Below, one piece after another: positions 13,531 through 59,774 of a DNA stretch of 64,000 bases. Source of the DNA: an uncultured Alphaproteobacteria bacterium (GTDB taxonomy: Bacteria > Pseudomonadota > Alphaproteobacteria > Rhizobiales > Kaistiaceae). The first letter of the stretch is position 1. The number at the start of each line of letters is the position of its first letter. The stretch spans positions 28,072-92,071 of the forward strand of contig CAWHLP010000009.1 in assembly GCA_963830205.1 (NCBI GenBank), written 5' to 3'. The notes below the pieces were generated by a model, which worked only from the letters and a program-made list of their open reading frames with translations, searched no databases and was not told the origin of the DNA. The translations under genes were made by a program, and so were the position numbers.

Positions 13531-13536
13531 ATGACC

Positions 13537-13830: not shown

Positions 13831-15729
13831 ATGGCCATTCCCAACGACACTCCCCGCGCCAAGCCGGTCGAAAGCCCGACCGAGCCGTTCAAGCGCGCGG
13901 TGACCGGCTGCATGCGCGCCATCGCCGGCGAGCCGGAGCTGGAGGTGTCGTTCGCGGCCGACCGGCCGATGCTCGCCCACAACAAGGCGCGCCTGCCCGA
14001 GCCGCCGCGCAAGATGACCGCGCGCGACATTGCCATCACCCGCGGCGTCGGCGATTCGCTGGCGCTGAGGCTCGCCTGTCACGACCCGGCCGTCCACCGC
14101 GCCCACGCGCCCGCCGGCAAGAACGCTCGCGCCGTCTACGACGCCGTCGAGCAGGCGCGCGTCGAGGCGCTCGGCGCCAACCGCATGACCGGTGTCGCCG
14201 ACAACATCTCGGCCATGCTCGAGGAGCGCTACCACCGCGCCAACTACCAGGAGGTCACCGAGCGCGCCGATGCGCCGCTCGAGGACGCCATCGCGTTGAT
14301 GGTGCGCGAGCGCCTGACCGGCCGGGCGCCGCCGCGTTCGAGCCGCAAGATCGTCGAGCTGTGGCGCGACTGGATCGAGGACCGCGCCGGCAAGGACCTG
14401 GCGCGCCTCACCGGCGCCATCGACGACCAGGCGCGCTTCGCTGTCGAGGTGCGCGAGATCCTCTCCGCTCTGGAGATGGCCGACGAGCTCTCCGGCGAGG
14501 CCGGCGACCAGGGCGACGACAGCGACGAGACCGGCGACCAGGACGACGCCGAGGGCGCCGCCGAGAGCGCCGAGGGCGCCGAAGCGGCGAGCGACGACGA
14601 GATGGACGCGTCCGCCGACCAGGGCGACGCCGGCGAGGGCGAGGCGAGCGAGGCGCAATCCGCCGAGACGACCGAGGACGCCGACATGGCGGACGCGCGC
14701 GACACCGGCGAGGCCCATCGCGCCGACGCGGCCTTCTCCAACCTGCCGCCGCTCATCGACTACAGAGCCTTCACGCCCCGCTTCGACGAGACGGTCAATG
14801 CCGAGGAGCTGTGCGACATCGCCGAGCTCGAGCGCCTGCGCTCCTATCTCGACAAGCAGCTCGCCCATCTGCAGAGCGCCGTCGGCCGGCTCGCCAACCG
14901 CCTGCAACGCCGCCTGATGGCGCAGCAGAACCGCGGCTGGGATTTCGACCTGGAGGAAGGCGTCATCGACGCGGCGCGCCTGTCACGCGTCATCACCGAC
15001 CCGATGAACGCGCTCACCTTCAAGGCCGAGCGCGACACCGAGTTCCGCGACACCATCGTCACCCTGCTCCTCGACAATTCCGGCTCCATGCGCGGCCGCC
15101 CGATCACCGTCGCCGCCACCTGCGCCGACATCCTCGCCCGCACGCTCGAGCGCTGCGGCGTCAAGGTCGAGATCCTCGGCTTCACCACCCGCGCCTGGAA
15201 GGGTGGCCAGTCGCGCGAGGCCTGGTTGCAGGCCGGCAAGCCGCCCAATCCCGGCCGCCTCAACGATCTCAGGCACATCATCTACAAGGCCGCCGATGCG
15301 CCCTGGCGGCGCTCGCGCCGCAACCTCGGCCTGATGATGCGCGAGGGCCTGCTCAAGGAGAACATCGACGGCGAGGCGCTGGCCTGGGCGCACAGCCGCC
15401 TGCTGGTGCGCCCCGAGCAGCGCAAGATCCTGATGATGATCTCGGACGGCGCCCCGGTCGACGATTCCACCCTCTCGGTCAATGCCGGCAACTACCTCGA
15501 GCGCCACCTGCGCGCCGTCATCGAGGAGGTCGAGACGCGCTCGCCGGTGGAGCTGATCGCCATCGGCATCGGCCACGACGTGACGCGCTATTACCGCCGC
15601 GCGGTGACCATCGTCGACGCCGATGAACTTGCCGGCGCCATGACCGACAAGCTCGCCGAGCTTTTCGACGAACGCGCGCCGACCGAGCCGGTGCGCATGC
15701 CCCGTCCGAAGCGCGCGACGCTGCAATGA
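13831..15729 (+). CDS. cobT: Cobaltochelatase subunit CobT (acidic linker + vWA domain)
   Basis: 632 aa. Central D/E-rich stretch. C-terminal vWA-type [14 protein letters not shown]...[12 protein letters not shown]. Adjacent to cobS. Confidence 0.9.
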
Positions 15730-16793
15730 GGCGCCGGCGGCTTGCTGCCGCGCTCCTTGCCTGCCTGATCACCTCGCCGCCGCTGACCGCGACGGCGGCA
15801 GAATTGGGCTTTGCGCCGATCGAGGTCACCGCGCGGCCGATTGCGCGCTTCGCGCTCGGCTCGTCCGAGACGCGCTTCGGGGCGCTGGAATTCCGCGGCG
15901 GCCTCCAGCTTTCCTCGCCCGACCCGCGCTTCGGCTCGCTCTCCGCCCTCGACTTTGCCGCCGACGGCCACACGCTCACCGCGGTTGCCGACACCGGCTT
16001 CTGGTTCACCGCCGCCCTTACCGAGGTAGACGGGCGTCCGACCGGGCTCGCTGCTCCGATGCTGGCGCCGATGCTCGACGCCCGTGGGCGCCCCTTCGCC
16101 AGCAAGCTCGATTGCGACGCCGAGGGCCTGCGCATCGTCAGCCGCGACGGCCGGGCGACCGCCTACGTCTCCTTCGAGCGGCGGCCGGCGATCGGCCGCT
16201 ATGTCGCCGCTCCGGACTTCGCCACCGCCCGGCGGAGCGACCTTCCGCTGCCCAAGTTCGTGAACCATCTCCAGGCGAACAAAGGCCTCGAGGCCCTCGC
16301 CGTGGCGCCCGCGGCAGGGCCGCTCGCCGGCGCCATCGTCGCCATCGCCGAACGCTCGCTCGACCGCGCCGGCAACCATCGCGGCTTCATCGTCGGCGCC
16401 CGCCGTGACGGAACCTTTGCCCTGGTGCGCTCCGATCGGTTCGACGTGTCGGACGCCGCCTTCCTGCCCGACGGCGACCTCATCGTCCTCGAACGCCGCT
16501 TCAATTTCACCGATGGTCTGGCCGTGCGCATCCGGCGCATTCCCGGCGCTGCCATCCGCCCGGGGGCGATCGTGGACGGCCCGGTGCTCATCACGGCCGA
16601 CATGAGTGACCAGATCGACAACATGGAGGGGCTGGCCGTGCGCACCGACGAGCACGGCGAGACGATCCTCACCCTTATCTCGGACGACAACGGCAACCAC
16701 TTCCTGCAGCGCACGATCCTGCTGCAATTCGCCCTGACTGAGACCCCCGAGCCATCTCTGTCGCCGCCCTTGCCCACGCCGCGGCCGCACTGA
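15726..16793 (+). CDS. Secreted esterase-like-activity-of-phytase family protein
   Basis: Signal peptide [52 protein letters not shown] strings are typical of phytase-like beta-propeller proteins. Confidence 0.7.
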
Positions 16794-29432: not shown

Positions 29433-29509
29433 GGCCCCGTAGCTCAGCAGGATAGAGCATCAGATTCCTAATCTGAGGGTCGTGCGTTCGAATCGCGCCG
29501 GGGTCACCA
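29433..29509 (+). tRNA. tRNA-Arg (anticodon CCT)
   Basis: Cloverleaf folded by hand. Acceptor GGCCCCG/CGGGGTC. D arm GCTC..GAGC. Anticodon stem TCAGA/TCTGA with loop TTCCTAA. T arm GTGCG-TTCGAAT-CGCGC. Encoded CCA. Confidence 0.95.
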
Positions 29510-36942: not shown

Positions 36943-39900
36943 ATGACCACCCCTCTCAAGGTCACCAACACCAACGACGCGGGCGCCGGCTCGCTGCGCG
37001 CCACCATCGCCGGTGCCAATGCCGGCGACACCATCGAGTTCGACCCGTCCCTCAAGGGACAGACCATCACGCTCACCTCTGGCGAGCTGGCGCTCACCCA
37101 GGACATCACCATCGACGGTGATATCGACGGCGACCACAAGGCCGACATCACCATCTCGGGCGGCGGCAACAGCCGGGTCTTCGACATCAGCGACGGCGCG
37201 AACACGACGATCGCCGCGACGCTCGAGAGCCTCGTCATAACGGACGGCAGCATCACAGGCAGCGGCGGCGGCATCTATGTGGGAGCGAACGACAAACTGA
37301 CGCTGATCGACTCGACGGTTTCGGACAACACCGCAACGACTCGGGGCGGCGGCATATTCGGTGCGGTGGGCGCCGGCACCGCGATCACCGTCGTCAACTC
37401 GACCATTGCGGACAACAACAGCGTATACGTATCGGGCGGCGGCATCGCGGCCGGGTCCTACGCAGCCATCACGTTGGTCAACGCGACCGTCTCGGGCAAC
37501 AGCGCCGGCGGCTCGGGCGGTGGCATCTACGGATTTCAGTTCAACGCAATTGCACTCTACAATTCTACCGTGACCGGCAACTATGCCGTTAGCACGGCCG
37601 GCGGCATCTACAACGACGGCACGACCGGGGTGACGACGCTGGGCAACTCCATCGTCGCTGGCAATGCCGCCCACACAAGTGGCAACGATCTCTACGGCGG
37701 CGGCACCCCCAGCGCGTTCGTGCTCTCGGGCAGCAACATCATCGGCTCGGCGCCGGTCAATTTCGCATCGACCTTGGGGCCGGCCGCGACGCAGATCGAC
37801 GGCACCAGCCAGACCGCCCTGGAGACGGTGTTCGCCTCGGTTGCGAACGATCCGCATTCCGGCGTGCTCTCGGGCGTTCTCGGCAACAATGGCGGGCCGA
37901 CCAAGACCGTTGCCATCGCGCCCGACGGGATTGCCGACGGCGCCGGCTACACCGGTGCGCTGCCCACCGAAGCGGACCTCGGCGTCGACGTGAATGGCAA
38001 CGGCACCATCGAGTCGGCGGCGATCTCGGTCGACCAGACGGGCAACGCGCGCGTCCAGGGCGGGCTCGACATCGGTGCCTATGAGGTCGCCGGCCCGGTA
38101 GTGACCACCAACAGCGACAGCGGCGCCGACCAGGGGTTCGCCGGCTCATTGGCCGCCGATGCTGCCGACGGCGGCGGGCTTAGCCTGCGCGAGGCGATCC
38201 ATTGGGCGCAAGCAGGCGACACAATCACCTTCGATTCGTCCCTGAAGGGACAGACCATCACCTTGTTGGCCGGCCAGTTGACGCTGGCCCAGGACCTGAC
38301 CATCGACGGCGACGTCAACGGCGACCACAAGGCCGACATCACCATCTCGGGCAACGATGCTAGCCGTATCTTCAACATCGGCAACTCGGGCACGGACGTC
38401 ACGCTTCACAGCCTGACGCTGACCCACGGCCGTGTTTCAGGGGGCCTTAATTTCTCTTACTCCGGTGGAGCGATCTCTGCCGTGGACGGTACGTCGCTCA
38501 ATATTGTCGACAGCTCGATCACCGACAGCTATGCGTCCGCCTCCGGCGGCGGAATTTCTAGCAACGGCTTGCTGAGCATCGCGAACTCGACGGTCTCGGG
38601 CAATATCGGGTATTACGGCGGCGGTATCAGCGTTGCCGGGCTTGGCTCCGCCTCCTATCTCTCCAACGTCACCGTCAGCGGGAATTTCGGGGAACATGGC
38701 GGCGGCATCGCGACCGCATCCGTCGTGAAGCTCTACGACAGTACGCTCGCAGGCAATACGGCGGTCGACGGCGGGGGCCTCGATTTCTTCGTCGGTTCGA
38801 CGGTGACCGTCATCAATACGGTCGTTGCCGGCAACTCGGCCAGTGGCGCCGGCATCGACATTGCGGTCGACGGCGGCAGCGGCATCGGCACACTGCGAGC
38901 TGGTGCCAGCTTCCTGGGCTCGGCGGTCGGTATCGCCAGTTCCGCCACGTATGCCTTCACCGATTACGGCATAAATCAGCTTGCCGCCGGCAATCCGCTG
39001 CTTGGGCCGCTGGGCGATCACGGCGGCACCGTCCAGACGATGGGCATCCTGGCTGGCAGCCCGCTGATCGGAGCGGGCTACGGCCATTCTCCGGCACTGC
39101 CCGTCGATTATCTCGACGTCGATCATGACGGCAACACCGCCGAGCTGCTGCCGATCGACGCCAACGGCAACCCGCGCGTTCAGGGCGTCCTCGATATCGG
39201 CGCCACCCAGTTCACCGGCCAGCCGCAGTTCTTCATGAGCGGCGACTTCAACGGCGACGGCATCGACGACATGGCCTGGCGCAGCCGTTCGAGCGGCTAC
39301 GTCGCCACCTGGCTGCTAAACAGCAGTACCCACCGGACGTTGGTTCATCCAAGCAATGCCACCACCGACTGGGAGGCGCTCGCCCCCGGCGACTATAACG
39401 GCGACGGCATCGATGACATCGCTTGGCGCAACACCTCGACCGGCTATGTGTCGGTGTGGCTGATGGACAGCAACGGCCACCGGCACGCCGTCCATTCCGG
39501 CGACGCCAGCAGCGCCTGGGAGGCGCTCGCCCCCGGCGACTTCAACGGCGACGGCATCGATGACATCGCCTGGCGCAACAGTTCGACCGGCTATGTGTCT
39601 GTCTGGCTGATGGACAAGAACGGCCACCGGCACGTCGTCCATTCCGGCGATGCCAGCAGCGCCTGGCAGGCGCTCGCCCCCGGTGACTACAACGGCGACG
39701 GCATCGACGACATCGCCTGGCGCAACAGTTCGACCGGCTATGTGTCTCTCTGGCTGATGGACAAGAACGGCCACCGGCACGTCGTCCATCCCAGCGACGC
39801 CACCAGCGACTGGCAGGCGCTTGCCCCCGGCGACTACAACGGCGACGGCATTACCGACATCGCCTGGCGCAACACCTCGACCGGCTATGTGTCGGTGTGG

Positions 39901-40266
39901 CTGATGGACAAGAACGGCCACCGGCACGCCGTCCATTCCGGCGATGCCGGCAGCGACTGGCAGGCGCTCGGCTCCGGCGACTACAACGGCGACGGCATCG
40001 ACGACATGGCCTGGCGCAACACCGCGACCGGCTATGTGTCGGTGTGGCTGATGGACAAGAACGGCAAGCGGCACTTCGTCCATTCCGGCGACGCCACCGC
40101 CGACTGGCAGGCGCTCTCGCCCGGTGACTACAACGGCGACGGGATTACCGACATCGCCTGGCGCAACACGTCGACCGGCTATGTGTCGGTGTGGCAGATG
40201 GACAAGAACGCCCATCGCCACGTCGTCCATCCCAGCGATGCCCCCAACATCTGGCAAGCGGTCTGA
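36943..40266 (+). CDS. Large repeat protein 1: two CSLREA/choice-of-anchor-Q-like parallel beta-helix modules + C-terminal seven-blade FG-GAP/VCBS-like propeller
   Basis: 1107 aa. Module starts TNTNDAGAGSLRATIAGANAGDTIEFDPSLKGQTITL and TTNSDSG...GGLSLREAIHWAQAGDTITFDSSLKGQTITL. NST/NAT..GN.A..GGGI rungs. Each module ends LLGPLGDHGGTVQTM..GSPLIGAG. Then 7 x 49-aa GDYNGDGIDDIAWRN.STGYVSVWLMD.NGHRH repeats. No N-terminal signal peptide. Confidence 0.85.
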   Translation: MTTPLKVTNTNDAGAGSLRATIAGANAGDTIEFDPSLKGQTITLTSGELALTQDITIDGDIDGDHKADITISGGGNSRVFDISDGANTTIAATLESLVITDGSITGSGGGIYVGANDKLTLIDSTVSDNTATTRGGGIFGAVGAGTAITVVNSTIADNNSVYVSGGGIAAGSYAAITLVNATVSGNSAGGSGGGIYGFQFNAIALYNSTVTGNYAVSTAGGIYNDGTTGVTTLGNSIVAGNAAHTSGNDLYGGGTPSAFVLSGSNIIGSAPVNFASTLGPAATQIDGTSQTALETVFASVANDPHSGVLSGVLGNNGGPTKTVAIAPDGIADGAGYTGALPTEADLGVDVNGNGTIESAAISVDQTGNARVQGGLDIGAYEVAGPVVTTNSDSGADQGFAGSLAADAADGGGLSLREAIHWAQAGDTITFDSSLKGQTITLLAGQLTLAQDLTIDGDVNGDHKADITISGNDASRIFNIGNSGTDVTLHSLTLTHGRVSGGLNFSYSGGAISAVDGTSLNIVDSSITDSYASASGGGISSNGLLSIANSTVSGNIGYYGGGISVAGLGSASYLSNVTVSGNFGEHGGGIATASVVKLYDSTLAGNTAVDGGGLDFFVGSTVTVINTVVAGNSASGAGIDIAVDGGSGIGTLRAGASFLGSAVGIASSATYAFTDYGINQLAAGNPLLGPLGDHGGTVQTMGILAGSPLIGAGYGHSPALPVDYLDVDHDGNTAELLPIDANGNPRVQGVLDIGATQFTGQPQFFMSGDFNGDGIDDMAWRSRSSGYVATWLLNSSTHRTLVHPSNATTDWEALAPGDYNGDGIDDIAWRNTSTGYVSVWLMDSNGHRHAVHSGDASSAWEALAPGDFNGDGIDDIAWRNSSTGYVSVWLMDKNGHRHVVHSGDASSAWQALAPGDYNGDGIDDIAWRNSSTGYVSLWLMDKNGHRHVVHPSDATSDWQALAPGDYNGDGITDIAWRNTSTGYVSVWLMDKNGHRHAVHSGDAGSDWQALGSGDYNGDGIDDMAWRNTATGYVSVWLMDKNGKRHFVHSGDATADWQALSPGDYNGDGITDIAWRNTSTGYVSVWQMDKNAHRHVVHPSDAPNIWQAV
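39241..40263 (+). repeat. Seven tandem 147-bp coding repeats (propeller blades) in gene 1
   Basis: Blade unit GD(Y/F)NGDGI(D/T)D(I/M)AWRN(T/S)(S/A)TGYVS(V/L)WLMD(K/S)NGHRH.VH(S/P)(G/S)DA...W(Q/E)AL.P counted seven times. The last copy is two codons short. Confidence 0.9.
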
Positions 40267-40718: not shown

Positions 40719-40883
40719 ATGACCCTGCCCACTATCCGGACTGTCACCAAAACCGCCGACTCCGACATCGCCTGGCGGCGCAGTTCGGGCCGTGCCGTCG
40801 CCATCTGGCGGATCAAGAGCGCCGACCAGATCGGCCCCTCCGGCAGTCCCGGCAGCCTCGGCACCACATGGAGCGCCATCTGA
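40719..40883 (+). CDS. Possible 54-aa ORF encoding a single degenerate propeller-blade-like module
   Basis: GGAGGA 8 nt before ATG 40719. MTLPTIRTVTKTADSDIAWRRSSGRAVAIWRIKSADQIGPSGSPGSLGTTWSAI echoes the blade consensus DIAWRNSSTGYVSVWLMD...W.AL. Below the ORF-track size cutoff. Confidence 0.25.
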   Translation: MTLPTIRTVTKTADSDIAWRRSSGRAVAIWRIKSADQIGPSGSPGSLGTTWSAI

Positions 40884-40956
40884 AGCGGACACCAGGACAG
40901 ATACTTCGAACCAACGCCAGCTACGCACAACCCAACCCAGGAGGGGGATAGGCATC

Positions 40957-43900
40957 ATGACCGTCGCGATTACCGTCACTAATACCAATGATCATGGCGA
41001 CGGCTCGCTGCGCCAGGCGATCCTCGACGCCACTGCCGGCGAGACCATCGAGTTCGACCCGTCCCTCAAGGGCAAGACCATCACGCTCACATCGGGCCAG
41101 CTCATGCTGTACCAGGACGTCACGATCATTGGTGACGTCGACAACGACGGCAAGGCGGACATCACCATCTCCGGCGATGCCAATCACAGCGGCACGGCCA
41201 ATTCCGGCGACAGCCGCATCTTTCTCATCAACTACGCTGGTACCGATGTCGAACTCGACAGCCTGACGCTGACCGGAGGATACAGCTACGTCGGTGGCGC
41301 AATCGCCGCGTACAACGGCACGAGCCTCACACTCATCAACAGCACCATCTCCGGGAACACCGCGTCCGCAGGCGCCGGCGGCATTTTCATGCTGCCCAAC
41401 ACCGTGCTCACCGTCGAGAACTCGACCATCTCGGGCAATGCCGCGCCCATCGGCGGCGGCCTCGTCATCGAAGGAACGGCCACTCTCACCAACGTCACCA
41501 TGACCGGGAATACCGCCACCGGTCACGATGGTGGGGCCATCGAAACGACCCAAGCGACGGTGACCATCCTCGACAGCACGATCGTGGGCAACACCGCTCA
41601 CCAGTATGGCGGGGGCATCAACCTCGCCGTGGCCTCGTCCCTGACCATCTCCAATTCGGTGGTTGCGAACAACACGGCCAGCACCGGTCCCGACATCGGC
41701 GACACAACCGGCAACAACACGATCGTCGCCGGATACGACTTCTTTGGCACCGACGTCTCAGGGATTGCCGGCTTCACCAGCAACGGCAGCAACTTCCTCA
41801 ACGCCGGCGACCCCAGGCTGGGGCCGCTCGGTGACCATGGCGGCCCGGTCAAGACCATGGTGCCTCTCGCCAACAGTCCGCTGGTCGACGCGGGATTGGC
41901 CGGGCTGTTGCCCACCGATGCGCTGGATATCGATCACGACGGGAACTACGACGAAAGACTGCCGCTCGACGCCAACGGCAAACCCCGCGTCCAGGGCGCG
42001 CTCGATATCGGCGCCGTGGAGGTCGGCGGCCCGGTGGTGACCACCAATAGCGACACCGGTGTGGACAAGGTGATTGGCACTTCTTTCGCCGCCGATGTCG
42101 CCGACGGCAGCGGCCTCAGCCTGCGCGAGGCGCTCGCATGGGCCGCGCAGGGCGACACCATCACCTTCGCTTCGTCGCTCAAGGGCCAGACCATCAGGCT
42201 GATCGGCGGCCAACTGAATTTGACCCGCGACGTCACCATCGATGGCGACGTCAACGGCGACCACAAGGCCGACATCACCATCTCCGGCGATGCCAACAAC
42301 AGCGGCACTGCCAACGCCGGCGACAGCCGCATCTTCAACGTCGGCAACGACCTCGACGTCGGGCTCGCCAGCCTGACGCTGACCAACGGCTATACCACCG
42401 GCAGCGGCGGCGCGATGTATGTCGGGGCTGGGACGACGCTGCTCCTCGCCGACAGCACCATCACACGGAGCGTCGCCGGCCTTGGGGGCGCAATCGCTAC
42501 CAAAGGCGACCTGTTCATCGGCAATTCGACGATCGCGAACAATTCGGCAGGCAGTGGCGGCGGCATCGACATCACGGCCACGGGTACTGCCACCATCGTT
42601 AACGCCACCATCACTGGGAACACTGCCACATACTTTGGCGGCGGCATCGAGACCAACACCAGCATTCTCTACATCCACAGCAGCACGATCGTCGGCAATC
42701 ACTCTGGCGGCTACAGCGGCGGCATCGATCTCTTCCATGGCTCGTTGTCGAACATCTTCAATACGGTCGTCGCCGGCAATACGGCGGCGTCGGGGCCCCC
42801 CGACGTCGGCGATTCAGGCGGCGGCTACAATGCGCTGCTAGTCGCGGCCAGTTTCTTCGGCACTGACGTTTCCGGGTTGCCCCACTTCACGGACAACGGC
42901 GGCAACATCAACAACGGCGGCAATCCACTGCTCGGTCCGTTGGGCGACCATGGCGGCAGCGTCAAGACTATGGACATCCTCAACGGCAGCCCGCTGATCG
43001 ACGGCGGCGATGCGAGCTGGCTGCCCGTCGACCTGCTCGACGTCGATCACGACGGCAACACGGCGGAGAGGCTACCCGTCGACGCCAACGGCAATCCGCG
43101 CACCCAGGGCGTCCTCGACATCGGCGCCACCCAGTTCGTCGCCGAGCCGCAGTTCTTCATCAGCGGCGACTTCAACGGCGACGGCATCGACGACATAGCC
43201 TGGCGCAATCGTTCGAGCGGATACGTGTCCGCCTGGCTGATGGACAAGAACGCCCACCGCCACGCCGTCCATCCGAGCAACGCCACCAGCGACTGGGAGG
43301 CGCTCAGCCCCGGCGACTACAACGGCGACGGCATCGACGACATCGCCTGGCGCAATACGTCGAGCGGCTATGTGTCGGTGTGGCTGATGGACAAGAACGG
43401 CAATCGGCACGCCGTCCATTCCGGCGACGCCAGCAGCGCCTGGCAGGCGCTCGCCCCCGGCGACTTCAACGGCGACGGGATTACCGACATCGCTTGGCGC
43501 AACAGTTCGACCGGCTATGTGTCCGTCTGGCTGATGGACAGCAACGGCCACCGGCACGTTGTCCATTCCGGCGACGCCACCAGCGCCTGGCAGGCGCTCG
43601 CCCCCGGCGACTACAACGGCGACGGCATTACCGACATCGCCTGGCGCAACACGTCGACCGGCTACGTGTCTGTCTGGCTGATGGACAGCAACGGCCACCG
43701 GCACGTCGTCCATCCCAGCGACGCCACCAGAGGCTGGGAGGCGCTTGCCCCCGGCGACTATAACGGCGACGGCATTACCGACATCGCCTGGCGCAACACC
43801 GCGACCGGCTATGTGTCTCTCTGGCTGATGGACAAGAACGGCCACCGGCACGCCGTCCATTCCGGCGACGCCGGCGGCGGCTGGCAGGCGCTCGGCTCCG

Positions 43901-44190
43901 GCGACTACAATGGCGACGGCATCGACGACATGGCCTGGCGCAACACCGCGACCGGCTACGTGTCGGTGTGGCTGATGGACAAGAACGGCAAGCGGCACTT
44001 CGTCCACTCCGGCGATGCCACCGCCGACTGGCAGGCGCTCTCGCCCGGCGACTACAACGGCGACGGGATTACCGACATCGCCTGGCGCAACACGTCGACC
44101 GGCTATGTGTCGGTGTGGCAGATGGACAAGAACGCCCATCGCCACGTCGTCCATCCCAGCGATGCCACCAACATCTGGCAGGCCGTCTGA
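40957..44190 (+). CDS. Large repeat protein 2 (paralog of 36943..40266): two beta-helix modules + seven-blade propeller
   Basis: ATG 40957 after [52 protein letters not shown]. Second module ...[32 protein letters not shown]. Same [10 protein letters not shown]..KTM endings and 7 x 49-aa blades. No signal peptide. Confidence 0.85.
   Translation: [1077 protein letters not shown]
43165..44187 (+). repeat. Seven tandem 147-bp coding repeats (propeller blades) in gene 2
   Basis: Same unit and the same array length (1023 nt) as 39241-40263. The last two blades are almost identical at DNA level between the two genes. Confidence 0.9.
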
Positions 44191-44506: not shown

Positions 44507-45295
44507 TCAGAGCAAAGGTCGTTCCACAAACGCTGCCGCCAACCGCGACCGGTTGTGTGCCAAGTCGTCCGCCGATACCTGCCCGGCGATTCCGGCCAGA
44601 TACTGCGACCAGCGTTCCGTCAGGTCGGCCGCAACGAGGTCGCGGCCCATTGTCAGGTCGGTGCTGAATTCCCTCCATCGCTGAATATTGTGCGCTTGTT
44701 CGGCCTCGCTGGCCTCGCCCCCGTAGCCGCTTATGTGCTGCGTACCGGTGTCCCACCGGTAGATATACGAGGTGCGACCGCCAAGATCGGTCGTGGCAAG
44801 CAGCCCCGCCTCCTCGATCTGCATCATGACGGGATGATCGGTGTATAGCGGATGGGTATCGATCGGAGCGTGCCGCACATATTCGGCCCGGAGAAGCCAC
44901 GAGGGTTCGAGGCGATTGGCGATGCGGCTGAAGGTTGTATTTCGCTCTGAAAACCACGCGGTCGCCGGCTTCCAGGCCATCTTGGTACCGATGTTCTCGA
45001 GGCAATCCTCCAGGTGCCAGGGCAGACACAGATCGTCGTCATCCCACCAATGAATGAAATCGGCGCTCGGATCGGCCAACTCAACCATCCTCTGCTTGAT
45101 GTATCGCAGGGGTTGGGGACCACACTGCTCGTTCACCACCCGGACGCGCGGATGTGTGAAGTTCAGCTCCTGGGGGTGCTGGTTGTAGATCAGCAGCGTC
45201 GCGTTCGACAGCGCCGACTGCGCCAGAAAGCAGGCCAACGCTTCGCTCGCCAGGCCGTGACGGCCGTAGGTCCCCATCAGGCAGTCTATCCGCAT
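44507..45295 (-). CDS. Small glycosyltransferase (GT2-like fold)
   Basis: 262 aa. CLMGTYGRHGLASEALACFLAQS resembles the GT-A N-terminal motif (P-TYNR...l.S.l.Q). Acidic cluster HWWDDDDL. Last gene of the minus-strand unit with the kinase-GT fusion. Confidence 0.65.
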   Translation of the reverse strand: MRIDCLMGTYGRHGLASEALACFLAQSALSNATLLIYNQHPQELNFTHPRVRVVNEQCGPQPLRYIKQRMVELADPSADFIHWWDDDDLCLPWHLEDCLENIGTKMAWKPATAWFSERNTTFSRIANRLEPSWLLRAEYVRHAPIDTHPLYTDHPVMMQIEEAGLLATTDLGGRTSYIYRWDTGTQHISGYGGEASEAEQAHNIQRWREFSTDLTMGRDLVAADLTERWSQYLAGIAGQVSADDLAHNRSRLAAAFVERPLL

Positions 45296-45353
45296 AAGTC
45301 TCGCCCCCGATGCGACCGCACTTCTGCGGGCTCACTCGTCCGCCAGCGTGCTG

Positions 45354-47207
45354 TCATTTCGATCCCGCGGGCGTGACGGATTGCACGACGGGATCGTTCT
45401 CGACGGCCGCGACAATGCGCTTCCCAACCTCCTCCCCGAGGTGCTCCTTGAAGTGTTCTCCGATCGGGGCGGTGTCCCATCCGATCTCACGGAACCCGAT
45501 GAAGTAATTGCGAATACGGTCCTCCCAAACGTTGCGGTAGGGGATGCCCATCGGCCGATTGAAGCGGTGAACCCACCTGAGAAAGGGGGCGCACAGCACG
45601 CGTCCGCCGCGCAGCCGGAACTTCTCGTGGATGTACCCTTCCTCGCCGCCGAAGCCGTGAAAGAGCGGGTTGAAGCCCGGCCAGGCGGCGCGCCGGCAGG
45701 CAAACAGACCCAGGCCCTGCATGGGAATTTCAAACGGAGGCGTCTCGGCGTCCGCTGCCGCCTCGTCGACCTCCCATCGTCCGTACATTCCGGATCTCCA
45801 GCCTGGGGAGAAATGGCTCGAGAATGTCTTGAGGCCGTCATAGAGGAGCGGTCCCTGGATCAGGTCTTTGGACTGCGGGTTCCCGGCGAAGTAGGCCATC
45901 AGGCGCGCGATGGCGCCCGGCGCAATCAGCACATGGCAGTCAATGCAAAGGACAAATTCGCCGCTCGCCTCGGTAAAGACGAAGTCGCGGACCGCGGTGC
46001 CTTTCACCTCGGTATTCGGAATATATCGCAGGTTCGGAATCCAGTACTCAAGCGCATACAGCGCCTCGCCGCACGGGCCATCCGGATTGTTGTCCACGAC
46101 GACGAACTCAACGTCCTCAAGGACCTCGGGATGATACATGCGGATGGCCTGGATGGTGAAATAGACGCCATCGTAGTCATCGTAGGTCGCCATCCCGATG
46201 GTCAGTCTCGGCGCAACGTCCGGCTTGGGTCGGAGCGGCGGGCGGGCTTTGGGAATCGCGGCCGGCACCGCCGTTGTGCTCTGCGTCTGGCTCGCTTGCG
46301 CTTGCGCCGCCGCGGTGTCGGTGGCCGCCGCGAAGGCAGCGAACAGGTCGCGCGTCGCGCCCGCATCGAAATTCTGCGCAACGGCCAGCCTGACCAGTCT
46401 GTCGAGAATGCCCTCGAACTGATCGAACCCGCCGTGCGTGACTTCGATGGCGGGAACGCTGCCGGCCAGGCCCTTGAGGAGGTCCAGCCCGTGGTCGGCC
46501 ATGTTGCGCGCGTTGAGGTTGCACTCCATGAGGCGCATCAGGGTCCGGGCCGCCGTCAGCGGTTCGATGCGGAGCTGGGCCGCCTCGACGAAGCGCGGAA
46601 AAACGATGAGACCCGCCTGCTGCGATTGCGATCTGGCGTCCGGAATGGTGATCGCCATGCCGGCTCCTGTGGCCACGGCCGTCGCGTGGATGCTGTCCGC
46701 AAGCAGACTGACGAGCCTGTCCTGCTGCGACTTGGTCAGCAGTGGCCGCGGAAAGGTGACCGTGTTGCGGCCCCCGGTCGCAATGACAATCTCGTCGGAA
46801 AGGAAGGAGAAACCGCGCGCGGCGAACCAGCCCGCCATCGTCGTCTTCCCCGCACCCGTGGGGCCAGCGATCAGGATGGCGCGATTGTCCCAGGCGACCG
46901 CGGCGGCGTGGAGCGCGACGGCATCGTCGACGTCGGTGATGAGGCTGCGCACGACCTGGTCGAGCGCCACATCGAGCGCCAGTTCGGCGCTCGCCCCCCG
47001 CACAACCGGTCGACGATCGACCTGAACGGAGTAGAGCCCCTCGCCATCGTCGCCGATGACGATGAAATGCGATGGCGGCTTCGACGACTCGACGGGACCG
47101 TAGATCAGGTCGACACGGGCCTTCAGGTCATCCGGAAACGTCAGCGCAGACGTGACGTTTCGCAGATCGATCAGGCGCGTGTGCAATTGGCCCTGCGAAC
47201 CGATCAA
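45354..47207 (-). CDS. Fusion protein: HPr-kinase-C-like (HprK-related) P-loop kinase domain + family-2 glycosyltransferase domain
   Basis: N-half LHAAAVAWDNRAILIAGPTGAGKTTMAGWFAARGFSFLSDEIV. An Ala/Thr/Gln/Pro linker. C-half RLTIGMATYDDYDGVYFTIQAI...VEFVVVDNNPDG...FVLCIDCHVL. TTG start 3 nt after the stop of the poly-Thr ORF. Confidence 0.8.
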   Translation of the reverse strand: MIGSQGQLHTRLIDLRNVTSALTFPDDLKARVDLIYGPVESSKPPSHFIVIGDDGEGLYSVQVDRRPVVRGASAELALDVALDQVVRSLITDVDDAVALHAAAVAWDNRAILIAGPTGAGKTTMAGWFAARGFSFLSDEIVIATGGRNTVTFPRPLLTKSQQDRLVSLLADSIHATAVATGAGMAITIPDARSQSQQAGLIVFPRFVEAAQLRIEPLTAARTLMRLMECNLNARNMADHGLDLLKGLAGSVPAIEVTHGGFDQFEGILDRLVRLAVAQNFDAGATRDLFAAFAAATDTAAAQAQASQTQSTTAVPAAIPKARPPLRPKPDVAPRLTIGMATYDDYDGVYFTIQAIRMYHPEVLEDVEFVVVDNNPDGPCGEALYALEYWIPNLRYIPNTEVKGTAVRDFVFTEASGEFVLCIDCHVLIAPGAIARLMAYFAGNPQSKDLIQGPLLYDGLKTFSSHFSPGWRSGMYGRWEVDEAAADAETPPFEIPMQGLGLFACRRAAWPGFNPLFHGFGGEEGYIHEKFRLRGGRVLCAPFLRWVHRFNRPMGIPYRNVWEDRIRNYFIGFREIGWDTAPIGEHFKEHLGEEVGKRIVAAVENDPVVQSVTPAGSK

Positions 47208-47210
47208 GGA

Positions 47211-47597
47211 TCAGGTGTTGGTGGTGGTGGTGGTAGTCGTGGCCGTTGTCACAGTTGTCGAGACCGTGGTCGTGGCGGTTGTGGTCGGCGTCGTCGTGAC
47301 CGTGGTCGTGGCGGTTGTGGTCGGCGTCGTGGTGGCGGTGGTCGTGGCGGTGGTCGTGGCGGTTGTGGTCGGCGTCGTGGTAGCGGTCGTGGTCGCAGTT
47401 GAAGTCGTGGCGGTTGTGGTCGCCGTCGTAGTTGTGCCCGTCGTCGTGCCGGTTGTTGTGGTCGTGTCGAGCGGTGACGCTGCGGCATGCGCGGGGACGA
47501 CGACCCACTCGACAACGGGCTTTTTCCACGCTGCCGGCAGCAGTGCGGCCGATACCGAACCCGCCAGTACAACCAACAATGCTCGACGAGTGGACAT
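47211..47597 (-). CDS. Poly-threonine protein (128 aa): 44-aa N-terminal leader/signal-like region + 84-aa tail that is ~75% Thr
   Basis: ATG 47597 preceded by GGGAG. MSTRRALLVVLAGSVSAALLPAAW (RR + hydrophobic stretch)...PAHAAASPLD, then (TTTX)n with X=A/P/V/G; 63 Thr in 84 residues by my count. Stop is 3 nt before the kinase-GT ORF. Caveat: all frames are open across this repeat. Confidence 0.55.
   Translation of the reverse strand: MSTRRALLVVLAGSVSAALLPAAWKKPVVEWVVVPAHAAASPLDTTTTTGTTTGTTTTATTTATTSTATTTATTTPTTTATTTATTTATTTPTTTATTTVTTTPTTTATTTVSTTVTTATTTTTTTNT
47214..47465. repeat. Imperfect tandem DNA repeats encoding the poly-Thr tract
   Basis: A 33-nt string gaccgtggtcgtggcggttgtggtcggcgtcgt occurs at 47262 and again at 47298 (36-bp period). 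Its 27-nt core recurs at 47352. The whole tract is (GGT/CGT/GGC/TGT)n on the plus strand. Confidence 0.85.
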
Positions 47598-47701
47598 GGA
47601 ATCTCCCAATCCAAGGTGGTCCCGATGCGCCTAGACTGCGCCACGTCTGTCAGCGACGCAAGCCTCCGGCGCAGCATGTTTGTTGACGGTTTTGGCCAGG
47701 A

Positions 47702-48937
47702 ATGGAAAGACATTGGGCCCGGTTCGGTTCGCCTGCGATGACGTCGTCCGACCAGACCTTTGATCTCTTCGGTTCCCTGCTCGGCGAGCTTGGAAGCGGT
47801 GCTGCGTTGCCGGCAAGCAGCAACGACCCGTTCCGAGACCAAATGCGCATCGCCGATCTGATGTGGGAACATGTTCCGGACCAGGCTCACTATCACGGCG
47901 TCGCCCGACTGGTCATGCCGGCCATTGTGCGGCTCGCCGCCGCAACGCAGTCGCCGCGCGCGGCCACCGCACGGCGCAGGCTCACGGCAATTGTTCATCG
48001 GCAGAATGCGGCGGTCGACGCGCGCGAGGAGGCGGTCAGCATCCTGTTGACCGCCATGAAGTCGGCTGGAATACGATTGGTTCTTCTGAAGGGTGCCGCA
48101 CTCGCCCACCTCATATACAAGGCACCCGAGGATCGCCCCTCGCTCGACATCGACGTGCTGGTCGACCGCGAAAACATCGTAGCGGCCGCAAGGGTCGCGG
48201 AGTCTATCGGCTACGTGTTCGCGGATGGGTACGCGTCGGCGTTCACCCCGACCAAGCACCATCTTCCCGAGGCAGCCATATGGACACAGGGCTTCCGCAT
48301 TGCGCTGGAAATCCACGTCGATGCGATGTCTCCCACCCGGCGAGAGCACCTTACGCTCGAGGACCTGAGCGGCCCGCTGCAGGAGGTTGCCCGGACTGGT
48401 GGACCATCGGGTCTGGCGCTTGGACACTTCGACATGCTGCGCCACCTCGCCCACCACACATTCGAGCCGAGCCAGAGGGTACGACTGGTCCACCTCTTTG
48501 ACCTGTGGCGCTATGGTATGCTCCATCTGGACTCGGTCGGTTTGGGTGTCCCCCCTCGCCAGCTTCGGCACATTCGCGTGGCGCACGACCTCGTCGGACT
48601 GGTGTTCAAGGGACCTCAGCCGTCCCCGCAATATCCAATTCCAGCCGGCGTCGGGGAGGGCTTGCTTCCGTTTACGAGCATCGGCCGCGATGCAGACGGT
48701 TTGTGGGTGCGCGCCAGGTTGCTGTTCGCGCCGTCCGAGTGGTGGCTCAGAGGCTTCTACGGCATCCCCCCGGGGCGCTCTCTCGCTGGCGCAACCCTCG
48801 TCCGCCACCCCTTGAACATTGTAGGCTGGGTTATCTCCCGGTACGTCGCAAGGATCAGGCGCATGTTCCGGCGGAACCGGGAGAACGTCACCCGACTCCG
48901 CGTAAGCAAAGGAAAGACCATGAAGGTGAGGCTATGA
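47702..48937 (+). CDS. Uncharacterised nucleotidyltransferase family protein (NTP_transf_5-like)
   Basis: IRLVLLKGAALAHLIYKAPEDRPSLDIDVLVDRENIVAAARVAESIGYVF matches the family hallmark (LKG...Y....R...DIDLLV). Start could also be ATG 47738. Confidence 0.78.
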   Translation: MERHWARFGSPAMTSSDQTFDLFGSLLGELGSGAALPASSNDPFRDQMRIADLMWEHVPDQAHYHGVARLVMPAIVRLAAATQSPRAATARRRLTAIVHRQNAAVDAREEAVSILLTAMKSAGIRLVLLKGAALAHLIYKAPEDRPSLDIDVLVDRENIVAAARVAESIGYVFADGYASAFTPTKHHLPEAAIWTQGFRIALEIHVDAMSPTRREHLTLEDLSGPLQEVARTGGPSGLALGHFDMLRHLAHHTFEPSQRVRLVHLFDLWRYGMLHLDSVGLGVPPRQLRHIRVAHDLVGLVFKGPQPSPQYPIPAGVGEGLLPFTSIGRDADGLWVRARLLFAPSEWWLRGFYGIPPGRSLAGATLVRHPLNIVGWVISRYVARIRRMFRRNRENVTRLRVSKGKTMKVRL

Positions 48938-49242
48938 TGGATGAGGCCCGTTTGTTGGATATCCCTCAGCGGGTCGCCGGCGTGCGCGAGGATCAGGTGG
49001 AGGGCGAGTTGCTCGTTTACCTGCCCGAAGCCACCCGCGCGGTCTTTCTCAACGGTCCCGCCGCAACAATCTGGGGTCTCTGCGACGGATCGCGCACGCT
49101 CGCATCGATGGTCGAACTCCTGGCGGAGTCCTACCCCGAAGCTGCCGACAATCTGGGTGCGGACGTGGTCGAGACAATCGATCAGCTTCGCGCCGCCGGC
49201 ATCATCACGCCAAAGTCAGATCATCTGCCGATCGGCGCCTAG
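48934..49242 (+). CDS. PqqD-family protein (RiPP-recognition-element-like peptide chaperone)
   Basis: 102 aa from ATG 48934 (ATGA overlap with the upstream gene). ELLVYLPEATRAVFLNGPAATIWGLCDGSRTLASMVELLAESYPEAADNLGADVVETIDQLRAAGII fits the PqqD pattern. The stop TAG lies inside the MITE terminal repeat. Confidence 0.8.
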   Translation: MMDEARLLDIPQRVAGVREDQVEGELLVYLPEATRAVFLNGPAATIWGLCDGSRTLASMVELLAESYPEAADNLGADVVETIDQLRAAGIITPKSDHLPIGA

Positions 49243-52318: not shown

Positions 52319-53566
52319 TCACCGCGGCTCCCACTGCAGGATGTAGAGGCCGGCGTCGTAGTCGGTGACGAAGGCGAGACCGTCGGTGGTGACGAAGACG
52401 TCCGCGGTGTGCAGGACCTTCTTGCGGCCGCGCAACGGCTCCATCCATCGCCGCGGCGTCGGCGGCACGAACCAGCCGATCTCCTCCGGCCGAAATGGGT
52501 TGGAGATGTCGTAGGCGCGCACCCCGGCGTTCTGGTAGGTGGCGAAGATCGTCGTCGAACTCTGCAAGGAGCCGGGCCTGTTTTCGTGGAGATTGTGCGG
52601 CCCGAAATGCCCGCCCTTGGCGACATAGTCCTGGTCCGATGGAACCGGAAACGTCGCGATGGTCACCGGGTTCGACGGCGCCCGGATGTCCACGACCCAG
52701 ATCGGCTTGAGTGGCTCCTGGTCGATGTCCTGCACCGCTTCGTCGGCGACGATGGCGAGGCCGCGGTCGACCAGCGGCAGCGGACTGTGCGTGCCACCGG
52801 CGAACGGCGGCGACCAGTTGCGGTGGGCGATGAGCTTCGGCTGCGTCTTGTCGGCGACATCGATCAGCGTGAAGCCGCCATCGCGCCAGGCACCGTAGGC
52901 GACGTCGCCGGCGACCACCGCGTGGTGCAACCCGACGCGGCCGGCGAGCTCGTTGCGCTCGCCGCCGGCGACCCACATCCCCGGAAGCCACCAGCGCCCA
53001 ACGATCTCGGGCCGCGTCGGATCGGCCAGGTCGATGACGATCAGGATGTGATCGATGAAGCCGTCGAGCAAGGCAGAGCCATAGGCGTAGCGCCCGCCGA
53101 CCCACCAGAGCCGGTGGATGCCGAGCCCTTCGACCTGGAGAAACCCGATCGCCCGCGGATTGGCCGGGTCCGAGGTGTCGTAGACCCGCATGCCGCCGGA
53201 GAAGTCCTTGCCGCGCGTTCCGAAGCGGGCGCTGTCGATGCCGCCAATGGTCTTCAGGTAGTACTCGGAGTCCGGCATGATCCCGCGGAAATCGAGCGCT
53301 TCGGCAACCAGCAGCAGATCGTCGTGGGTCTGCAGATGCAGCGCCCATGAATGGGCGTGGTGGGGCAACAGGTTGACGACGCGCGGCTTGCGTGGGTCGC
53401 GCACGTCGACCACCGAGGTGCCGCGCGTCTTGCTGTGGCCGATATAGGCGTGGCCCTTCGCAACCATGATTTGGTCGCTGTGACCGCGCTCATCGAGGGG
53501 GCTGTAGCCGACGAGCGAGAAGTTGCGCGCACTCTCCGGGACGATCTCCGCCTGGCTCGCCGACAT
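52319..53566 (-). CDS. LVIVD-repeat-type beta-propeller protein, cytoplasmic (paralog A)
   Basis: Repeated hhhhDhxDPxxP strings (SVVDVRDPRKP, MRVYDTSDPANP, ILIVIDLADPTRP, FTLIDVADKTQP, VVDIRAPSNP, VRAYDISNPFRP). No signal peptide. About 65% identical by eye to 58539..59774. Confidence 0.7.
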   Translation of the reverse strand: MSASQAEIVPESARNFSLVGYSPLDERGHSDQIMVAKGHAYIGHSKTRGTSVVDVRDPRKPRVVNLLPHHAHSWALHLQTHDDLLLVAEALDFRGIMPDSEYYLKTIGGIDSARFGTRGKDFSGGMRVYDTSDPANPRAIGFLQVEGLGIHRLWWVGGRYAYGSALLDGFIDHILIVIDLADPTRPEIVGRWWLPGMWVAGGERNELAGRVGLHHAVVAGDVAYGAWRDGGFTLIDVADKTQPKLIAHRNWSPPFAGGTHSPLPLVDRGLAIVADEAVQDIDQEPLKPIWVVDIRAPSNPVTIATFPVPSDQDYVAKGGHFGPHNLHENRPGSLQSSTTIFATYQNAGVRAYDISNPFRPEEIGWFVPPTPRRWMEPLRGRKKVLHTADVFVTTDGLAFVTDYDAGLYILQWEPR

Positions 53567-58538: not shown

Positions 58539-59774
58539 TCAGCCGGTCCACTCCACGATGTTCAGCCCGCTGTCATAGTCGGTGATGTAGGCAAGCCCGT
58601 CGGCCGCCACGAACACGTCGCCGGTGTGCAGCACCTTGGTGCGTCCGCGCAGCGGCTCGAACCACGCCCGCGGCGCCGCCGGCACATAATAGCCGATCTC
58701 CTCTGGGCGAAACGGGTTGCTGATGTCGAAGGCTCTCAGCCCGGCATTCTGGTAGGTCGCGAAGATGATCGACGAGCTCTGGAAGGAGCCGGGTCGGTTC
58801 TCATGAAGATTGTGGGGACCGAAATGGCCGCCCTTGCGCACGTAATCCTGGTCGCAGGGAATTGGAAACGTTGCGATCGTGACCGGATTGGCCGGGGTGC
58901 GGATATCGAGGACCCAGGTATGCTTCATCGGCTCCTGGTCGATGTCGAGCACGGCTTCATCGGCGACCACGAGAAGTCCGCGATCATGCAGCGGCAAGGC
59001 GCTGTGCGTTCCCCCGGCGAATGGCGGCGACCAATTGCGGCGAGCGATGAGGGCGGGCCGCGACTTGTCCTTGACGTCGAGGATCGCCAGCCCACCGTCG
59101 CGCCAGGAGCCGTAGGCGATGTCGTCGGCGACCACTGCGTGGTGCAGCGCTACCCGGCCAGGCCCCGCGGCGGTTTCCCCGCCGGCCGTCCACATGCCGG
59201 GCATCCACCAGCGGCCGACTTCAACCGGACGGGTGGGATCGTTCAGGTCGACGATGATGAGGATGTGATCGGTGAAGCCGTCCAGGATCGCCGAGGCGTA
59301 GGCGTAGCGGCCGCCGACCCAGAAGATGCGGTGGATGCCGAGACCTTCGACCTCGAGAAATCCGATCGCGCGCGGCTGGCGCGGATCGGCAATGTCGTAG
59401 ACGCGCATACCGGCGGAAAAATCCACGCCGCGCTTGCCGAACTGCGCGCTGTGCATGTTCGGGATCGAGCCGGCGTAATAGTCCCGTTGCGAGATGTACG
59501 ATTTGAAGTCGAGTTCCTCGACGGCGAGCATGATGTCGCCGTGGGTCTGCAGGTGGATCGACCAGGAACTGCTGTGGATCGGCACGAAATTGACCGGCGT
59601 CGGCCGTCGCGGATCGCGGACATCCACGACGCTGATCCCGCGGCTGATGCGATGGCCGAGGAAGGCATAGCCGCGCTCGACCATGACCTGCATGGCGTCG
59701 CCGCGGCCGTTCAGGTCGGATTGTCCGACGAAGCTGAAGTTCCTCGCCGCCTCTGTCGTCCCGCTGCCCGTCAT
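58539..59774 (-). CDS. LVIVD-repeat-type beta-propeller protein, cytoplasmic (paralog B)
   Basis: Collinear with 52319..53566 (ARNFSFVGQSDL..., ISVVDVRDPRRP, MRVYDIADPRQP, ILIIVDLNDPTRP, LRAFDISNPFRPEEIG). No signal peptide. Confidence 0.7.
   Translation of the reverse strand: MTGSGTTEAARNFSFVGQSDLNGRGDAMQVMVERGYAFLGHRISRGISVVDVRDPRRPTPVNFVPIHSSSWSIHLQTHGDIMLAVEELDFKSYISQRDYYAGSIPNMHSAQFGKRGVDFSAGMRVYDIADPRQPRAIGFLEVEGLGIHRIFWVGGRYAYASAILDGFTDHILIIVDLNDPTRPVEVGRWWMPGMWTAGGETAAGPGRVALHHAVVADDIAYGSWRDGGLAILDVKDKSRPALIARRNWSPPFAGGTHSALPLHDRGLLVVADEAVLDIDQEPMKHTWVLDIRTPANPVTIATFPIPCDQDYVRKGGHFGPHNLHENRPGSFQSSSIIFATYQNAGLRAFDISNPFRPEEIGYYVPAAPRAWFEPLRGRTKVLHTGDVFVAADGLAYITDYDSGLNIVEWTG

Follow-up and report, generated by a model that had tools for sequence, protein, structure and literature searches.

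Genes of the island

We analysed a 64,000-nt stretch of contig CAWHLP010000009.1 from an uncultured bacterium of the Alphaproteobacteria (hereafter the window), and in particular a small open reading frame (ORF) whose product ends in a long poly-Thr tail. The ORF belongs to a five-gene island spanning 44507..49242, the features of which are collected in Table 1. Directly downstream lies the gene of a fusion enzyme, in which an HPr-kinase-like P-loop domain is joined to a glycosyltransferase domain of the GT-A fold, and a second glycosyltransferase gene follows on the same strand. The opposite strand encodes an NTP_transf_5 nucleotidyltransferase and a PqqD-family protein, that is, a peptide chaperone or recognition element (RRE) of the kind known from peptides that are synthesized by ribosomes and modified post-translationally (RiPPs); the ATG of the PqqD gene overlaps the stop codon of the nucleotidyltransferase gene (ATGA). 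We refer to the ORF as the precursor gene, after the role that is proposed for it below. The GC content of the island is 62-66%, which is not clearly foreign, and a scan for promoters and terminators gave no signal better than that of shuffles.

Table 1 Features of the island. Positions are those of the window; residue numbers refer to the respective protein.
Feature	Position	Strand	Evidence and remarks
Second glycosyltransferase, 262 aa, GT-A/SpsA-like	44507..45295	-	Invariant W-D-D-D-D
Fusion enzyme, 617 aa	45354..47207	-	TTG start abuts precursor stop
GT-A glycosyltransferase domain of fusion, ~residues 335-617	45357..46205	-	PF00535 (GT2)
HPr-kinase-like P-loop domain of fusion, ~residues 1-305	46293..47207	-	TIGR04352; PF27840 on homologs; PDB HPr kinases
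Putative precursor/substrate gene, 128 aa	47211..47597	-	Translation; family HMM match E = 4e-18
Stop codon TGA of precursor gene	47211..47213	-	
Putative mature/core part	47214..47483	-	A-A-S (Ser at +3), P-L-D, then 84 residues, 63 Thr
Tandem DNA repeats coding TTTX units	47257..47429		Periods 12/24/36/48; Tandem Repeats Finder
Putative leader/Tat-like signal, residues 1-38 (M1-A38)	47484..47597	-	STRR, ALLVVLAGSVSAALL, P21-x-x-W24-K-K-P27-VVEWVVV-P35-A-H-A38
Shine-Dalgarno sequence GGGAG	47603..47607	-	5 nt upstream of ATG 47597..47595; read from sequence
NTP_transf_5 nucleotidyltransferase, 411 aa	47702..48937	+	Divergent from precursor; PF14907 E = 1.8e-24
PqqD-family peptide chaperone/RRE, 102 aa	48934..49242	+	TIGR03859 E = 9.5e-10

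Reading frame and repeats of the precursor gene

The present analysis follows up an annotation made from the letters of the window alone (the original prediction), which had described a 128-aa ORF with an 84-residue tail holding 63 Thr, preceded by a good Shine-Dalgarno sequence. Our translation is identical: it begins with a 44-residue hydrophobic N-terminus containing an Arg pair, MSTRRALLVVLAGSVSAALLPAAWKKPVVEWVVVPAHAAASPLD, after which comes the Thr-rich tail, and the GGGAG is in place before the ATG. As for the DNA repeats, the exact 33-nt copies at 47262 and 47298 with their 36-nt period were confirmed, while the further copy starts at 47350 and is 29-32 nt long, rather than 27 nt at 47352 as originally given. 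The tract of 84 residues consists to 75% of one residue (Thr, or Val on the antisense strand), and the runner-up among all six-frame ORFs of the window reaches 56%. All four Thr codons occur in it (ACC 26, ACG 23, ACA 9, ACT 5), so that the variation lies at the wobble position. Since no stop codon interrupts the repeat in any of the three sense frames or in the antisense frame, the frame in use cannot be told from composition alone. No exact match to the 128-aa product, to a 132-aa product or to four alternative-frame ORFs was found in a collection of 15 billion proteins. The precursor region appears to be unannotated, because that collection lacks the precursor and does contain two of its neighbours on the 96-kb contig.

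The closest relative of the locus (L082; ENA ERZ25039495 contig_24441) is 85% identical at the nucleotide level and shares 37 of 44 leader residues with the window; its annotation has no gene call at the orthologous position. A codon-level comparison of this pair gave 14 synonymous against 7 non-synonymous changes in the leader, with 5, 4 and 14 differences at codon positions 1, 2 and 3, respectively. The tandem DNA repeats imply that tail length evolves quickly. Of the length polymorphism between strains that had been expected from them, we noted variation between orthologs and paralogs only: the tail has ~72 residues in the relative and 84 in the window, the repeat unit is TTTTP in the former and TTTA/TTTP in the latter, and paralogs within one locus differ in the length of their Thr runs. 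A degenerate DNA pattern for the leader subtype of the window had no match in metagenome contigs of the Joint Genome Institute (JGI).

In the relative (L082:7647-8000), the tail is open and has the same end, and is read as Thr, Arg/Pro, Thr, His/Asp and again Thr. Two pairs of 1-nt indels that compensate each other seem to have occurred in the 15-nt repeat, and could be errors of long-read assembly or real frame drift. The block of this locus consists of PqqD, NTP_transf_5, precursor and fusion genes, the second glycosyltransferase gene being cut off after ~300 nt. Around it (3780-6004 and 10761-16622) are IS91/Y2 transposases, phage-type integrases, a TacA antitoxin and a gene resembling a coupling protein of type IV secretion systems. 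This embedding among mobile-element genes suggests that the cassette is mobile.

A family with a conserved leader and hypervariable tails

Relatives were fetched by way of the downstream fusion gene, an alignment of 30 homologs of which led to 80 genome loci, mostly from Hyphomicrobiales, Bradyrhizobium/Xanthobacteraceae, Oricola, Desulfobulbaceae and Arenicellales. A hidden Markov model (HMM) of the N-terminal 45 residues identified 73 homologous ORFs in 42 of these loci, usually directly upstream of the enzyme gene and in its orientation; in every one of them the leader and the variable tail share one frame. As a single-sequence query the leader found no homologs in a word-indexed search, and an alignment of 39 leaders was needed. 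A word-indexed search with a profile returned 420 proteins, and an exhaustive HMM search of public protein data returned 4,901 sequences, each standing for a cluster at 50% identity; for 2,730 of these E was <= 1e-10. At source the members are named hypothetical proteins or, in some Desulfobulbaceae, Tat-signal-domain proteins (NCBI naming; Tat, twin-arginine translocation). Pfam places no domain on the leader region of any member, Pfam and NCBIfam hold no model for the family, and in open-access text we found no paper on it or on the kinase-glycosyltransferase fusion.

The leader is conserved well beyond its Arg pair. R4, R5, W24, P27, P35 and A38 are invariant in alignments of both 39 and 79 leaders, A36 is invariant among the 39 and nearly so among the 79, and P21 and H37 are nearly invariant. 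The family consensus contains [STD]-R-R-x-h-L-K, ~15 Gly/Ala-rich hydrophobic residues and L-P-x-[KR]-W-x-[KR]-P-V-V-x-S-V-x-x-P-A-H-A, to which [Q/A]-[T/A]-[S/T] is joined. At the third position after PAHA (+3), 250 of 252 members have Ser or Thr. The tails, on the other hand, are hypervariable, with 6 to ~260 residues and a composition of T 22%, P 14% and A 10%. Short tails are mostly rich in Thr, Pro, Ala, Ser and Gly (a few are poly-Asp or poly-Ser), and long ones have a Thr/Pro linker followed by diverse domains. The number of Cys residues is even (4, 2, 6 or 8) in 97 of the 108 long-tailed members, which implies disulfides. Many loci carry 2-6 tandem paralogs whose leaders are near-identical and whose tails differ. 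Within this range the copy of the window is an extreme case, with a pure long poly-Thr tail and no globular domain. The original prediction had held that poly-Thr tracts of this purity are unusual in Proteobacteria; that view is weakened by the finding that Thr-rich tails are common in a widespread and mostly proteobacterial family. We conclude that these small two-part proteins, with an N-terminus of ~40-45 residues and a tail, are probably exported, and that their family is very large and undescribed.

Two further observations concern the tails. A second motif, D-x-[LF]-[VI]-x-x-A-H-A-G, is present in 30 of the 108 long members (P0243-P0375; for example P0254, P0272 and P0279), 25-60 residues past the first P-A-H-A. 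This motif is similar to the leader's end and is not explained by a plain signal-peptidase site. Precursors of Methyloceanibacter (L020:1800-4100) have tails of the form (APPTTQTE)n and Cys-rich segments similar to extracellular Cys-repeat modules, such as CDDGNLDVGDGCDATC; this similarity fits an extracytoplasmic destination.

Linkage of precursor and enzyme genes

Across loci the precursor, fusion, PqqD and NTP_transf_5 genes co-occur, with or without the second glycosyltransferase gene, in varying order and orientation. Among the 51 loci with full flanks, PqqD and precursor are found together in 29, PqqD only in 7, precursor only in 2 and neither in 13 (Fisher p = 1.2e-5), and NTP_transf_5 is likewise associated with the precursor (Fisher p = 2e-4), with the reservation that such p-values overstate independence because the loci are phylogenetically related. 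The ORF thus accompanies the enzymes, and its Thr frame is the one that orthologs conserve; the original prediction had named the opposite outcomes, namely loss of the ORF in relatives that keep the enzymes and conservation of another frame, as grounds for giving it up. Several of the domains are also fused to each other, as NTP_transf_5-PqqD (L028), GT2-NTP_transf_5 (L023), GT-A-NTP_transf_5 (L002) and HprK-GT-LicD (L004 and others). When the surroundings of the 80 loci were compared to a distance of 6 kb, no further conserved gene family emerged, proteases and transporters included.

Much of what marks RiPP precursors is therefore found here: a small ORF beside modifying enzymes, a PqqD/RRE gene in the cluster, a conserved leader, a hypervariable core and several copies. 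A dedicated leader protease or transporter, which belongs to the same set of marks, is not among the genes conserved around the 80 loci, and the flanks in the window hold ordinary transport and metabolism genes.

The enzymes

The fusion enzyme has more than 1,384 homologs. The best NCBIfam match of its kinase-like domain is TIGR04352 (HprK_rel_A, E = 3e-21), at 75.7 bits against a cutoff of 200 bits, so that the domain belongs to a related family and is not a member. In addition, PF27840 (ScmC) is recorded on homologs of the fusion, and HPr kinases of the PDB match weakly (E = 0.0035). The domain contains the Walker A motif GPTGAGKTT, and H100, G120, K121, D138, E139 and R154 are invariant among 30 homologs. 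An AlphaFold 2 (AF2) model of the fusion, whose predicted local distance difference test score (pLDDT) is 83.8, consists of two domains joined by a disordered linker. In a fold search with this model the 50 best PDB matches were all polypeptide GalNAc-transferases (ppGalNAc-Ts; E = 4e-13 to 1e-10), a likeness that is at the level of fold only (14-19% identity) and that involves enzymes heavily over-represented in the PDB. A search of the PDB with the sequence profile of the fusion returned no glycosyltransferase. C421-x-D423-x-H425 is invariant in the transferase domain among 30 homologs, and D423-x-H425 is a predicted metal site. We liken this D-x-H, which stands where GT2 enzymes usually have DxD, to the motif of the ppGalNAc-Ts, a correspondence that we assume.

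Many homologs of the fusion (P0008, P0012-P0015, P0020) have a third, C-terminal LicD domain, which is a phosphotransferase of the nucleotidyltransferase fold. Loci with this arrangement are L004 (5938-9183), L002, L005, L009, L029 and L037. Some of them are without a separate NTP_transf_5 gene, and LicD may stand in its place.

The 262-aa protein encoded next to the fusion has no match in Pfam or NCBIfam on its own. A profile of 12 of its homologs matched SpsA (1h7l) with E = 4.8e-5 over positions 4-130, along with other GT2 enzymes; this fits a GT-A enzyme with a nucleotide-binding, Rossmann-like N-terminal half and a DxD motif, for which the invariant W-D-D-D-D is the counterpart. Comparison of its family with the fusion by hhalign detected no relationship, and it was the search of the profile against the PDB that then placed the protein as GT-A. 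Its single-sequence AF2 model was unusable (pLDDT 38.8), and its homologs recur in related loci. As to the PqqD protein, its match to TIGR04353 (the PqqD protein of the HPr-rel-A system) has E = 0.02 and 15.9 bits against a cutoff of 35 bits; PF05402 is recorded on its ortholog in the closest relative.

A putative export signal

The N-terminus had originally been suggested to be a Tat- or Sec-type signal, on account of its Arg pair and AHA end. Signal-like features recur in the family: the Arg pair is invariant, the leader has an AxA end (A-H-A at residues 36-38 in the window, with a basic c-region carrying K25 and K26), and TIGR01409 (TAT_signal_seq) is matched by 25 of 79 members at E <= 0.01, with one member (L017) scoring 20.2 bits against a cutoff of 16.7. 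The formate_TAT model is matched by 13 members and PF10518 by 6. Export by Tat is favoured, with the general secretory (Sec) pathway as the second possibility, in view of the invariance of the Arg pair, the agreement of the family with RRxhLK and the TIGR01409 matches of 25 of 79 members. A Tat route would also suit a substrate that needs cytoplasmic maturation before export.

The copy of the window itself speaks less clearly for Tat. It matches none of the Tat models, TIGR01409 and PF10518 included. Its N-terminus, S-T-R-R-A-L-L-V, has the Arg pair without the Lys that RRxxLK calls for. A mean Kyte-Doolittle value of 2.45, compared to 1.1-2.2 in two other members, marks its hydrophobic core as Sec-like. 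The Cys-rich globular members of the family would moreover be awkward Tat cargo.

Proposed mechanism and alternatives

It is likely that the precursor is a substrate of the adjacent enzymes. With moderate confidence we go further, and propose that its N-terminus is a Tat-like export signal which doubles as a PqqD-docking leader, and that the Thr tail is modified in the cytoplasm and then exported. The original prediction had offered two alternatives, a secretion signal of a mucin-like, O-modified protein and a leader of the RiPP type, to be bound by the PqqD protein encoded nearby; the two appear to be halves of one system. The leader half gains from the finding that precursor presence tracks PqqD, and the mucin half from the adjacent transferase being structurally nearest to the mucin-type ppGalNAc-Ts. 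In the proposed mechanism, the PqqD chaperone would dock on the W-x-x-P...P-A-H-A module of the leader in the cytoplasm and present the tail. The fusion enzyme, the NTP_transf_5 protein and the second GT-A enzyme would then put phosphate and sugars on Ser/Thr hydroxyls, by mucin-type O-glycosylation and/or phosphoglycosylation, possibly beginning at the invariant +3 hydroxyl and spreading along the Thr tract. The modified product would be exported by a general pathway, presumably Tat, and cleaved after A-H-A, so that the periplasm or cell surface would come to carry a densely modified, mucin-like poly-Thr peptide. Only tentatively do we extend this to a widespread proteobacterial system of at least 4,900 sequence clusters, overlooked by annotation, in which a Tat signal doubles as a RiPP-style leader and a PqqD-held substrate is decorated before it is released for export.

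A number of points weigh against this proposal, in addition to the limits already given for the Fisher tests, for the family assignments of the kinase-like domain and the PqqD protein, for the likeness to ppGalNAc-Ts and for the Tat signal. About 25 loci carry the fusion without precursor, PqqD or NTP_transf_5 within 6 kb. Conversely, the members P0192 and P0173 stand alone in L083 (a contig of 5.18 Mb) and L084, with no fusion, PqqD or NTP_transf_5 gene within 8 kb, which would mean that substrates can be encoded in trans. Finally, the mechanistic steps are all inferred.

The loci with the fusion only include those of Labrys, Taklimakanibacter, a Brucella sp., Yoonia and others (L040, L041, L043, L048, L050, L052, L056, L057, L060), and may be a separate subfamily with another acceptor. 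Among Arenicellales, L032, L035 and L045 have the enzymes and no precursor within 6 kb, and L038 has six precursors.

The alternative that survives best, although we consider it unlikely, is a classical RiPP precursor, whose leader serves PqqD-directed modification only and whose small peptide product is released and exported by an unlinked protease and transporter; the Arg pair and the hydrophobic stretch would then be recognition elements and not an export signal. Such a precursor would agree with the PqqD gene in the cluster and its correlation with precursor presence, with tandem copies that conserve the leader and vary the core, with the many tails of only 6-20 residues (for example QATGQE and QTSPKGT), and with HPr-kinase and NTP-transferase homologs being known RiPP tailoring enzymes. 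However, the surroundings of the clusters hold no conserved protease or transporter, the Tat-signal HMM is passed by 25 of 79 members and the family has an AxA end. Furthermore, many members have 150-250 aa with even Cys counts, as is typical of exported folded domains, and members are sometimes encoded far from the enzymes.

Less probable still is that the precursor is an ordinary secreted or membrane-anchored low-complexity protein, and that the neighbouring enzymes are glycan or envelope enzymes acting on a different protein or on a lipid or polysaccharide. Polysaccharide loci do commonly contain genes of the GT2, LicD and nucleotidyltransferase types, and both the fusion-only loci and the orphan precursor genes would be expected. 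This account does not sit well with small ORFs that abut the fusion in 42 of 80 loci, in several orders and with varied gene order, often as tandem arrays, nor with a precursor stop that abuts the enzyme start in the window. The association with PqqD (p = 1.2e-5) involves a peptide-binding chaperone, and the invariant leader positions (W, P, PAHA and Ser/Thr at +3) exceed what export needs.

That the frame is wrong, kept open by a stop-free repeat, and that the real product, if any, is that of the His/Asp-rich, Arg/Pro-rich or antisense Val-rich frame, is hardly credible: the openness of all these frames, the missing public gene call and the drifting tail of the closest relative are outweighed by a leader that is conserved at protein level and that, in 73 ORFs as well as in database proteins by the thousand, shares its frame with Thr-rich tails (which rules out another frame or a non-coding repeat), by wobble variation of the Thr codons, by mostly synonymous leader substitutions and by the presence of a Shine-Dalgarno sequence and ATG, so that the poly-Thr ORF is almost certainly a real gene of its family.

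Comparison with known systems

HPr-kinase homologs phosphorylate Ser of ribosomal (RiPP) precursors, and in pseudomycoidin the resulting phosphate is extended by one or two hexoses through an NTP-transferase-type enzyme (PMC8498205). The lasso peptide systems of paeninodin and pseudomycoidin have in common with the island an HPr-kinase homolog, an NTP-transferase-type enzyme and a PqqD-type element (PMC8498205), PqqD-type domains being general leader-recognition elements in RiPP pathways (PMC7470986, PMC12710340). The island differs from them in that the kinase is fused to a GT-A domain, and in its proposed substrate with a Tat-like signal and a long Thr-rich tail, whereas lasso substrates have a short lasso core with a C-terminal Ser. 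A lasso peptide cluster was ruled out, as neither a lasso cyclase (Asn-synthase-like) nor a B2 protease was found in the island or its flanks. HPr-rel-A (TIGR04352 and TIGR04353) and ScmC (PF27840) of the SynChlorMet cassette are relatives of the kinase-like domain and the PqqD protein of the island; a glycosyltransferase fusion and a linked precursor family are, as far as seen, not part of their definitions.

Bufferins are RiPP precursors with a Sec signal peptide that use a general export route; their chemistry is the conversion of Cys to thiooxazole by MNIO enzymes, and the signal peptide is dispensable for modification (PMC11626156). For signal-peptide RiPPs more widely, including those of the lipoprotein pathway, modification takes place in the cytoplasm, by enzymes with an RRE-containing partner, and is followed by export and cleavage by signal peptidase (PMC11626156, PMC12710340, PMC13056109). 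As in these systems, a general-secretion signal would replace the dedicated leader and transporter pair in the island precursor. What sets the island apart from bufferins is the Tat-like signal with an invariant extra motif and the kinase and glycosyltransferase enzymes.

The ppGalNAc-Ts, which start mucin-type O-glycosylation in eukaryotes, make up family GT27. The likeness to them consists in the fold, the D-x-H motif and acceptors (in the island, proposed acceptors) that are Thr/Pro/Ala-rich unstructured repeats. The transferase of the fusion is without a ricin-type lectin domain, has the Pfam class GT2 and, with 14-19% identity, is not a member at sequence level; GT27 enzymes are type II membrane proteins of the Golgi, whereas the fusion transferase would be cytoplasmic and soluble. 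Serine-rich repeat adhesins of Gram-positive bacteria (GspB, Fap1) are low-complexity repeat proteins rich in a hydroxy amino acid; they are glycosylated in the cytoplasm by dedicated, clustered glycosyltransferases, and have an unusually long conserved signal peptide and accessory Sec export. Compared with these, the island has no SecA2/SecY2 and no KxYKxGKxW signal, its precursor proteins are proteobacterial, Thr-rich and of 60-250 aa, and the cluster adds PqqD and a kinase-like domain. The redox enzyme maturation proteins TorD and DmsD and their kind are all-helical chaperones that hold a Tat signal until cytoplasmic maturation of cofactor-containing redox enzymes ends. Here the resemblance is pure analogy: the candidate binder in the island has the PqqD/RRE fold, and the maturation would be glycosylation.

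If the proposal is true, thousands of uncalled or hypothetical small ORFs would be tied to one conserved enzyme set, and cassettes of HPr-kinase-like, PqqD and NTP_transf_5 proteins, so far understood only as lasso tailoring, would have a concrete test substrate. It would provide bacterial glycosyltransferases of mucin-type likeness acting on poly-Thr acceptors, which would be useful for glyco-engineering, and would extend the RiPP precursors with general-secretion signals to a Tat-like signal with a built-in recognition motif. The whole would be a bacterial cytoplasmic counterpart of mucin and proteophosphoglycan biosynthesis with chaperone-gated export. The hypervariable, slippage-prone Thr tails, along with the paralogs in tandem, suggest a rapidly evolving coat on the surface or in the periplasm, which could, if real, bear on interactions with phages, predators or hosts.

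Flanking genes

The flanks of the island are unrelated to it: one of them encodes two FG-GAP proteins, and the other has genes for an IclR regulator, for an aldolase and for LVIVD proteins, together with transport genes of the ABC and TRAP types. The FG-GAP proteins (36943-40266 and 40792-44190, plus strand) are paralogs of ~1,100 aa with FG-GAP repeats, W_rich_C and choice-of-anchor Q; NCBIfam models of FosA/FosC2-type fosfomycin resistance are listed for them with scores far under the cutoffs. We ruled them out as components of the system, since they are not conserved beside the cluster in other loci. The LVIVD-repeat proteins (52319-53566 and 58539-59774, minus strand) are beta-propellers that flank an operon for a branched-chain amino-acid ABC transporter, near which a BKACE enzyme and a 2-hydroxyacid dehydrogenase are also encoded. 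The sole Rfam match in the window is a tRNA gene at 29433-29506 on the plus strand, distant from the island.

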